Positions 61,261 through 63,778 of a DNA stretch of 64,000 nt are shown piece by piece. The notes beneath the pieces were generated by a model. That model was not told the DNA's origin, ran no database searches, and saw only the letters and a list, made by a program, of their open reading frames with translations. The DNA is taken from NCBI GenBank assembly GCA_951406725.2, contig OX597837.1, positions 47,926,001 through 47,990,000 of the forward strand, given 5' to 3'. Source of the stretch: Octopus vulgaris. Its lineage: Eukaryota. Position numbers and translations under genes: made by a program. Numbering within the stretch: position 1 is the first letter of the stretch; each line of letters starts with the position of its first letter.

Positions 61261-61360
61261 NNNNNNNNNNNNNNNNNNNNNNNNNNNNNNNNNNNNNNNN
61301 NNNNNNNNNNNNNNNNNNNNNNNNNNNNNNNNNNNNNNNNNNNNNNNNNNNNNNNNNNNN
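61261..61360. other. Assembly gap (100 N)
   Basis: Run of N; true size unknown. Confidence 1.
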
Positions 61361-61796: not shown

Positions 61797-62307
61797 TCTC
61801 TCTCTTTCGGAGAGGCACAAGCACCTACACGCACATATACACACACGGCAGTAACTTCCGCCTGCCGAATTCAATCACAAAGTTTCGGTCGGCTCGGGGC
61901 TATAGCAGAAGACACCTACCCAAAGTGCCACGCAGTGGGACTGAACCCGAAACCATATAGCTAGGAAACAAGCTCCCTAACCACACAGCCATGCCCGCGC
62001 CTAATATATATATATGACTGGATTGCCTGTGTTCAGTCTACTGCAGGATGAAGGTCTCAGCACGTTCTCTCCACCAACCATGGTCTGATGTGGAGGTCAA
62101 GAATTTGAGCTTAAGATCCTACTGGTTTGATGAACCTTTGCTATTACACTGGTTTGACATGTCTTGGCAGAAGGATGCTGTCTTTTTCCTTGTTCTCTTA
62201 CCCAGGAGTAGTTAAGTCGATTACCTTAACCCATCCTGAAGTCGACCTCAGCGGAATTTGAACTCTGATTAAGAAATGTTGATTTTACTTCTTTTTATTA
62301 TTCACAG

Positions 62308-62366
62308 TTGGTTCCAGAACATGTTGTGATGACACCTGAAGAGAAGTCTGAACTCTTGCAGCGATA
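62308..62366 (+). CDS. POLR2E: RNA polymerases I/II/III shared subunit RPB5, internal exon (59 bp)
   Basis: ttcacAG acceptor; [19 protein letters not shown](Y) matches RPB5 [20 protein letters not shown]; donor GTATCCTTT. Confidence 0.95.
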
Positions 62367-63463
62367 GTATCCTTTAGACTGTGACTGCTGCTGTTGTTGT
62401 TGTTTTTTCTGTTTAAGCACATCTCCCTGCATGTGTGTGTATGTGTGTATATATACACTCACACATGCTGTTTTGCTCTCTCTTCCTCCTCTCCCCCTTT
62501 CTACTTCCCTTGTGTATTTCTTTTTGTTATCATCTCTTCACTTTTCTCTCTCCCTCCTTTCCCTTCTATTTAAACCTGTGATGATGGTAAAAGACATACT
62601 TCTTTAAATATGTATGCTTACACACACACACACACACACACACTCTCTCTCCTTTCATTCAAATGCACCCTTCCCCTTCACACATGAACCTGCACTCACA
62701 CACACACACCTTCCCCATCTACATCCTCTTCTGAATCCTGGAATGGGTGGGATTCTGTGTTGTTACTCACCCTGCCAGAAATACTAGCTAAACGTCCCTC
62801 GTCTGTTATCACTAACCACTGTAGCCTAAACTGTGGACACAAGTATGTTATCAGAAGGCTCACCATACAACTGCAAGGTTCCTGGCGGCACCATTCCTAG
62901 TTTCGGTCGTCTTGGGGTGTGGCAGTGTTGATCCCGTAAACGACAAGGTACTGTTGGTCACTGATTCAGATATAAAGAGAACTAAATCAGTATTGCAGCT
63001 TGACCTGTTAGAAACAGCAACCAAATTTCTTTAAAATTATATTCTACCATCTTGGAAAAAAGAAAGGACACATGAGGCAATGTAGTGAAATGTAAAAAGA
63101 CTGGATAGCCATCGTCGGAATGTCATATAGATCTGCTCAGTGTGGGATTGTCTGGGGCCAGACAACAATAAGTAAGCAAGCAAAAGTTGGGATGGCCATG
63201 GTTGAGAGGCTTCTGATCATAGATCTGTTCAAGCAGAACTGACCTAGGGCTAAACAACAGCATGATGCTCTCTTTCTTCCTCCTCATTCCACTTAAGAAC
63301 TTTGTTTTCTCCTTAATTACTCTGTTGAGGTCAACTTTGCCTTTCATCCCTTTCAGGGTTGGTAAAATAAATACTTGTCATGTACTCAGTGGGGGGGGGG
63401 GACATAATCGACCCCCGTCCCCCCAAAAAAAACCTTTATTTTCTCCTTAATTCTTGTCACCAG
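62367..63463 (+). other. POLR2E: U12-type (minor spliceosome) GT-AG intron
   Basis: 5' splice site GTATCCTTT; branch site TCCTTAAT at 63444-63451, about 13 nt before the cAG; the frame joins correctly across TA|T (Tyr). Confidence 0.92.
63319..63433 (+). mobile_element. 5'-truncated Nin-domain SINE with target-site duplication
   Basis: gaggtcaactttgcctttcatccctttcagggttggtaaaataaatac core and an A-rich tail, flanked by ttttctccttaatt at 63305-63318 and 63439-63452. Confidence 0.8.
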
Positions 63464-63542
63464 TAAGTTAAAGGAATCACAATTGCCCCGTGTCCAACAA
63501 GGAGACCCTGTTGCCAGGTATTTTGGACTGAAGAGAGGTCAG
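63464..63542 (+). CDS. POLR2E: RPB5 internal exon (79 bp)
   Basis: (Y)[26 protein letters not shown] matches RPB5 [26 protein letters not shown]; donor CAG|GTAGGC. The last exon is beyond the window. Confidence 0.96.
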
Positions 63543-63778
63543 GTAGGCAGCTTTGTTATCTTTTTTTCTTTTTTCTTTTTGACTTCTCTCATTCATCCAC
63601 AACTTTTCTTTCTTTGGTATGGCCTGTCCTAGCTCTGTGTGATGATGGTCTCTGAATGTGGGATGGAGCATGGCTCTGTGAAACGTTATTTCATCTGGCT
63701 GTGTGTGGTTTAGCAGTGTATGGCTGGACCCAGTTGTGTATGTATAGTGCAGTCACTTACTACAGAGAACCCCTTCTA

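Follow-up and report, generated by a model that had tools for sequence, protein, structure and literature searches.

The window, the 64 kb of forward-strand octopus DNA analysed here (C24:47926001-47990000, within a 2.8 Gb assembly), contains part of the gene for RPB5/POLR2E, a subunit common to all three nuclear RNA polymerases. Residues 144-210 of the protein (PF01191) are encoded by two exons that flank the intron of interest and by the final coding exon, which lies about 18 kb farther along. The first, a 59-nt exon at 62308..62366 on the plus strand, encodes residues 144-162 and ends with the TA of Tyr163 (RNA contigs and a protein match); the next, of 79 nt at 63464..63542 on the same strand, is followed by a U2-type GT donor (RNA contigs and a PF01191 match). 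Compared by eye, the peptides of the RPB5 exons are identical to Octopus bimaculoides P0022 and O. sinensis P0023. The coding exons lie at a single locus in the assembly, and the exon that follows the intron is present there in one copy. Residues 1-141, which occupy about 490 nt in RNA contigs, were searched for in the assembly and not found; a gap of 100 N stands at 61261-61360, 950 nt upstream of the first RPB5 exon present, and a match to the upstream exon on C13 with one mismatch was rejected as chance. No tRNA was detected in the 64-kb window by ARAGORN.

The minor intron and its orthologues

The intron between the two exons is a GT-AG intron of 1097 nt (62367..63463, plus strand) whose signals place it in the minor, U12-type class, with dependence on the minor spliceosome being predicted from those signals. 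The GT donor, GTATCCTTT at 62367..62375 (plus), meets RTATCCTT and pairs with the 5' end of the genome's own U11 at -7.2 kcal/mol. A branch motif fitting TCCTTRAY is found at 63444..63451 (plus; branch A at 63449 or 63450), and A63450 is 13 nt from G63463, the last base of the CAG acceptor (63461..63463, plus) used in RNA contigs. The same genome contains a U12 snRNA (125 bits) and a U11 snRNA (94.5 bits), complementary to the branch motif and the donor respectively. U11-like copies above the Rfam cut-off were recorded at five places (L103, L104 and three more), along with three U12-like matches (L038-L040), two of them above the cut-off. At L100 an intron with a U2-type donor contains a further U12-like branch motif, about 45 nt ahead of the final coding exon (C24:48007908), which is probably there by chance.

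The normal joint, 62366^63464, was seen in four of five RNA-type runs (X1, X3, X5 and X10; three studies, two organism labels), carried each time by a single continuous contig, 764-920 nt long and with a depth of 105-352. Run X6 has no cover on the RPB5 exons. All of these runs consist of assembled contigs, from which rare paths are lost, and none is on record as RNA.

Human and mouse POLR2E have a minor intron in the same gene with the same 12-nt donor context, the octopus 12-mer being identical to theirs (Olthof et al. 2019, PMC6717393, supplement file 1), and there too TA precedes the donor, meaning that retention would read TAG as in octopus if the frame is taken from orthology (PMC6717393). 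The mammalian introns are much shorter, however, at 72 nt in mouse and 124 nt in human compared with 1097 nt, and the supplement rows for this gene report neither a SINE nor a duplicated branch motif (PMC6717393).

We compared 78 metagenome RPB5 loci at the intron position, of which 40 are continuous, 16 lack an exon match, two are unclear and 20 carry an intron. A U12-type donor is present in seven of the 20 orthologous introns, and its occurrence at the same position indicates that the intron is ancient; all seven have a CAG acceptor. With orthologous acceptors placed by homology and some loci being near-duplicates, the first acceptor is YAG in 20/20 introns and GAG occurs in 0/24 acceptors, while AAG stands at the second exon copies of L141 and L154 as candidate sites. 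YAG is dominant among U12 acceptors in general, a preference that is backed here by the orthologues alone. The exon ends in TA before the donor G in each of the 11 orthologous loci examined in detail, and none of the seven distant U12-donor orthologues has a second strict branch motif within 150 nt upstream of its first acceptor.

The metagenome loci also vary in ways of their own. Twelve of the 20 orthologous introns have a U2-type donor (L137, L148, L149, L150, L154, L156, L160, L169 and near-duplicates), and comparison of the donor sequences suggests conversion of the RPB5 intron from U12 to U2 type in several lineages. At L136:1265-1552 the orthologous intron combines a non-consensus donor that starts with GC with a U12 branch motif of good quality, spaced 13 nt from its CAG. 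In four metagenome animal contigs the intron is followed by two in-frame, diverged copies of the RPB5 exon (L141:2615/2762, L150:1216/1499, L154:681/983 and L169:4620/5223), which are likely to be either-or exons. A single U12 donor in L141 faces two U12 branch motifs, one per exon copy (11 nt to CAG and 9 nt to AAG), and the donor before the paired copies is U2-type in L150, L154 and L169. No precedent for paired RPB5 exon copies was found in the papers searched.

The SINE fragment and its flanking repeat

Close to the intron's 3' end lies a 115-nt insert (63319..63433, plus strand, sense) that aligns with positions 83-188 of a 211-nt SINE consensus (83 matches, 20 mismatches; 19% diverged), a consensus built from 15 copies, many of them chosen for likeness to the window copy. 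The fragment is cut at both ends: it starts directly after the upstream copy of a flanking repeat, within a B-box-like motif of the SINE, and at its 3' end it lacks the tail and about 23 nt of the consensus. The family is dispersed and high-copy, with 203 copies in 673 kb and 860 candidates, 40 of which were scored. Its full copies have A- and B-box-like motifs (identified by eye) and flank duplications, and we liken it to tRNA-derived SINEs; the octopus tRNA-derived SINEs of Ohshima and Okada (1994), as cited in PMC4758252, are similarly short and abundant. The upstream intron holds an antisense fragment of the same family (62239-62268, minus strand), inverted relative to the insert and separated from it by the 59-nt exon. 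The two can pair, although this pairing loses to a local hairpin in the global fold.

As the preliminary description had reported, a 19-bp repeat with one mismatch brackets the truncated SINE and carries the branch sequence twice. Its copies at 63300..63318 and 63434..63452 (both plus), identified from the sequence and, for the upstream copy, a flank-repeat scan, are identical at 18/19 positions, and the similarity extends to 24 nt at 88% (21/24; 63295-63318 and 63429-63452), with the result that the upstream copy may start at 63295. Each contains TCCTTAAT, beginning at 63310 and 63444, the only two plus-strand matches to TCCTTRAY in the 64-kb window; the upstream copy of the branch motif thus occupies 63310..63317 (plus), with its branch A at 63315 or 63316.

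The flank repeat of the window copy scores 16. Chance can be rejected as its origin because mismatched flank pairs never reach 14 (0/438 and 0/489). Among SINE elements picked by position, 7/123 score at least 12 (repeats of 12-29 nt) compared with 1/489 mismatched pairs, and 6/123 reach 14 compared with 0/489. The best account by far is that the repeat is likely a target-site duplication of the SINE, its length falling within the family range, and the origin proposed in the preliminary description is upheld to that extent. The missing 3' end is atypical, as an intact 3' end and tail are expected after target-primed insertion. The 3'-short state is also found in 26/123 elements of the family, and L006 is another 3'-short copy with a flank repeat of 15 nt.

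DNA-type contigs bear on the two junctions unequally. Contigs of runs X18 and X19 extend from 62662 through the upstream repeat copy into the SINE, to 63348. The X18 contig has one difference from the assembly and possibly comes from the source sample, and the X19 contig, with five letter differences and gaps, represents another haplotype; since both cross it, the 5' junction of the insertion is real and shared by two haplotypes. A contig of run X20 stops at 63178. None of the matches listed for X18, X19 and X20 covers 63384-63459, and the 3' junction is therefore documented by the assembly alone. No second copy of 63400-63560 exists elsewhere in the genome. An empty site, which would appear as a 134-nt skip, was absent from the matches listed for the three DNA-type runs, which leave 63384-63459 without cover; no look-alike was on record for relatives, and none of the 78 metagenome RPB5 loci was recognisable as the octopus locus.

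The decoy acceptor

Downstream of the upstream branch motif an AG (63328..63329, plus) forms a GAG, and A63316 is 13 nt from G63329, exactly the distance from A63450 to G63463, so that the equal spacing noted originally holds at both sites. The decoy AG is inherited from the SINE consensus: an AG is present at this place in 134/164 family copies, as GAG in 101. Truncation points that would put an AG at exactly 13 nt make up 4-7%, rising to 13-21% for 11-13 nt and 40-69% for 10-20 nt. Both the AG and its spacing are explicable without selection. A second AG inherited with the SINE fragment, a U2-like CAG after a pyrimidine run (63355..63356, plus), is 40 nt from the upstream branch A and is a minority variant of the family (23/171 copies).

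Splicing at the decoy would join the TA at the exon end to G63330, giving TAG, and would add 134 nt, out of frame, as described before. The stop would fall at codon 163, with the next junction 212 nt further on. This would make the product prone to nonsense-mediated decay (NMD), as originally proposed, under the rule used in the minor-intron survey, by which a later junction must follow the stop at a distance of more than 50 nt (PMC6717393). The "instant stop" is correct as to the codon itself; its special character does not hold up. Splicing to the CAG at 63355-63356 would likewise yield TAG, plain retention of the intron also reads TAG, and 25/44 intronic AGs have a purine after them and would lead to a stop, the common reason being that the Tyr codon is split with TA at the exon end. 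Retention values for the mouse POLR2E minor intron of 0.031-0.126 are given for six of 11 tissue columns in the supplement of PMC6717393. Since retention reads TAG, and the same intron shows retention in mouse, a path to that truncated message exists in the gene even without the decoy.

The two branch motifs have identical predicted pairing to the genome's U12 (-6.7 kcal/mol each). Their predicted folds differ. The upstream motif at 63311-63317 is complementary to the start of the SINE at 63324-63330, and the resulting 7-bp hairpin (63311..63330, plus; -6.2 kcal/mol) is predicted to bury both branch As together with the decoy AG. Its pair probability is 0.67-1.0 in six local contexts and 0.85 in a fold of the whole intron (1.4 kb), in which the unpaired share is 0% for the decoy AG and 54-61% for the real branch As. 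The predicted cost of opening the stretch from branch to AG is 7.2-8.3 kcal/mol at the upstream copy versus 3.2-4.9 at the real site, whereas the cost of opening the branch region alone is equal (2.9-4.1 versus 3.0-4.3 kcal/mol). The hairpin is short and was noticed post hoc, with a z-score of -2.0 at 32 nt and -0.85 at 50 nt. It requires two C-to-T changes from the SINE consensus; the completing 7-mer is found in 3/164 copies, and 3/160 other SINE copies set behind the same flank fold as well. This rare state, noticed post hoc in a predicted fold, may reflect survival bias or selection for silencing. A strong G/C hairpin is also predicted in the 3' part of the SINE just upstream of the real branch site (63390..63425, plus; -24.6 kcal/mol, with 11/200 shuffles as stable); it consists of an expanded G run and a C run of the element, and similar G-run expansions occur in L007 and L028.

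Among the joints listed, the decoy joint 62366^63330 was found in 0/5 RNA-type runs, which is a weak test in contigs: these drop rare isoforms, and the lack of the joint therefore leaves room for decoy use. Joints ending at 63326-63332, including those from 62256 to 63330 with foreign letters, are from other SINE copies and do not represent the decoy. The RNA runs have no cover at 63424-63463 beyond the exon contig (depths equal those of the exon contig alone), which we do not count as proof, the stretch also being without cover in DNA-type runs, where X19 and X20 have none from 63384 on.

A silenced by-product or a control switch

The anatomy of the insertion, the duplicated motif and the use of the normal acceptor are established here. 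The reading we favour, and regard as probable, is that of a SINE flanked by a likely target-site duplication in an intron that is spliced at the normal CAG, with the decoy GAG used rarely or never. In this model, a truncated SINE came to lie 13 nt upstream of the branch motif of a conserved U12 intron, and the 19-nt repeat brought with it a second branch motif. U11/U12 would be able to engage either motif, with the downstream one, which has an open CAG and a 79-nt exon, presumably winning. The upstream motif would lose on three counts, namely the G at -3 of its acceptor, the predicted 7-bp hairpin in which motif and AG would be folded together, and an exon of 213 nt instead of 79 nt. Should a decoy product be made on rare occasions, translation would end at codon 163 and the message would pass to NMD, as it would with the intron retained. 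It is likely that the insertion in this essential gene owes its survival to the silence of the decoy and not to a regulatory role. The caution in the preliminary description that a GAG decoy may be weak is the likelier reading of the site.

It is possible, though we think it unlikely, that the decoy is leaky and unregulated, with the upstream branch and the GAG being used in about 5-25% of transcripts that are then cleared by NMD, the loss being tolerated. The identical U12 pairing and optimal spacing of the upstream motif are consistent with this, as is the lax, distance-driven choice of U12 3' sites, with an optimum of 11-13 nt, described in PMC3584512 and PMC1874599, and NMD would hide the product from steady-state RNA. 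Reports on how often such choices are made point both ways: U12 introns are said to undergo almost no alternative splicing, with alternative 3' sites possibly representing errors (PMC3584512), and alternative 3' sites are counted among the commonest events near mouse minor introns (PMC6717393). Against leakiness, GAG is not seen among the 24 orthologous acceptors and the AG is predicted to be buried; moreover, RPB5 coding exons lie at one locus only, so a large drain would be costly.

Regulated use is harder to sustain. In a structure-gated version, which we consider very unlikely, the two C-to-T changes completed the hairpin, and its opening by temperature, a helicase or the level of U12 snRNP would divert RPB5 to NMD; in a weaker form, selection would have completed the hairpin to silence a harmful decoy. 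The original proposal, in which a poison acceptor made by the transposon could tune RPB5 levels by way of NMD, we judge highly improbable, also if hairpin opening is taken as the trigger. In its favour, the stop lies 212 nt ahead of the next junction, two haplotypes share the 5' junction of the insertion, the branch motif is intact in spite of the 19% divergence of the SINE copy, and control by alternative splicing coupled to NMD (AS-NMD) exists with the minor spliceosome in the form of the USSE (PMC3584512, PMC8329584). However, nothing in the arrangement needs selection for use: the AG is ancestral, chance gives its spacing in 4-7% of cases, the stop is generic and is already provided by retention, and an intact 8-mer would be unremarkable at 19% divergence. 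Conservation across species was not seen among the seven distant U12-donor orthologues, no decoy junction was seen in the contigs, weak test that they are, and the decoy has a G at -3 unlike all orthologous acceptors seen and is predicted to be base-paired.

Harder still to credit is the proposition that the cryptic site that matters is the CAG at 63355-63356, with the major spliceosome joining it to a U2 or cryptic donor farther upstream when minor splicing lags, or with U12 acting on it at long range. This site is a YAG after a pyrimidine run, in a variant seen in a minority of copies, and cryptic U2 sites are known to switch on when U12 splicing is compromised (PMC8329584), but it lies 40 nt from the upstream branch A, and a U12 donor cannot in general be combined with a U2 acceptor (PMC3584512). 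Least credible of all is that the repeat is no target-site duplication, arising instead from an older local duplication with later insertion or from an assembly error in the 3' half, for although the SINE lacks its 3' tail, the 3' junction (63384-63459) has no independent DNA contig and the assembly is missing RPB5 residues 1-141, the repeat abuts both ends of the element at a length within the family range, L006 is similarly short at its 3' end with a flank repeat, and contigs of X18 and X19 span the 5' junction.

The favoured reading, a tolerated insertion with a near-silent decoy, can be set beside several known systems. Transposon-supplied acceptors, such as MIR/AluSp in BLOC1S2 (PMC6822395) and LINE-1 in RB1 intron 14 (cited in PMC8819188), resemble the octopus case in that the element brings an intronic AG. 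Those acceptors, however, are sites of the major spliceosome whose use is seen in RNA (PMC6822395, PMC8819188), whereas the octopus site is a putative U12-type acceptor with a branch of host sequence copied by the duplication. The cryptic U12 3' sites of WDFY1 and LKB1 (Chang et al. 2007, PMC1874599; Turunen et al., PMC3584512) share with it a single U12 donor and rival acceptors whose products usually have premature stops, but they follow mutation of the real sites (PMC1874599, PMC3584512), and in octopus the real branch motif is intact and a complete second one accompanies it. The USSE AS-NMD switch of SNRNP48/RNPC3 likewise combines a repeated U12-type signal with an NMD-prone isoform (PMC3584512, PMC8329584). 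It is the donor motif that the USSE repeats, with conservation and demonstrated regulation (PMC3584512, PMC8329584), in contrast to the octopus repeat, which is of the branch motif, is young and is of putative use. The literature searched, a body of work that leaves most subscription papers outside it, yielded no description of a U12 branch site copied by a target-site duplication.

The arrangement is likely to be a tolerated accident, a silenced by-product of insertion as opposed to a control switch, and on present evidence it is likely a single-locus curiosity, real and tidy, without function. If regulated use were true, it would constitute a transposon-made minor-spliceosome switch on a subunit of Pol I, II and III. 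As it stands, two identical U12 branch motifs at identical spacing face one donor and are set apart by the -3 base, the local fold and the length of the exon, which offers a ready natural experiment on how minor introns settle their 3' site. The locus also illustrates one way for an essential gene to accommodate an insertion at its own branch site.
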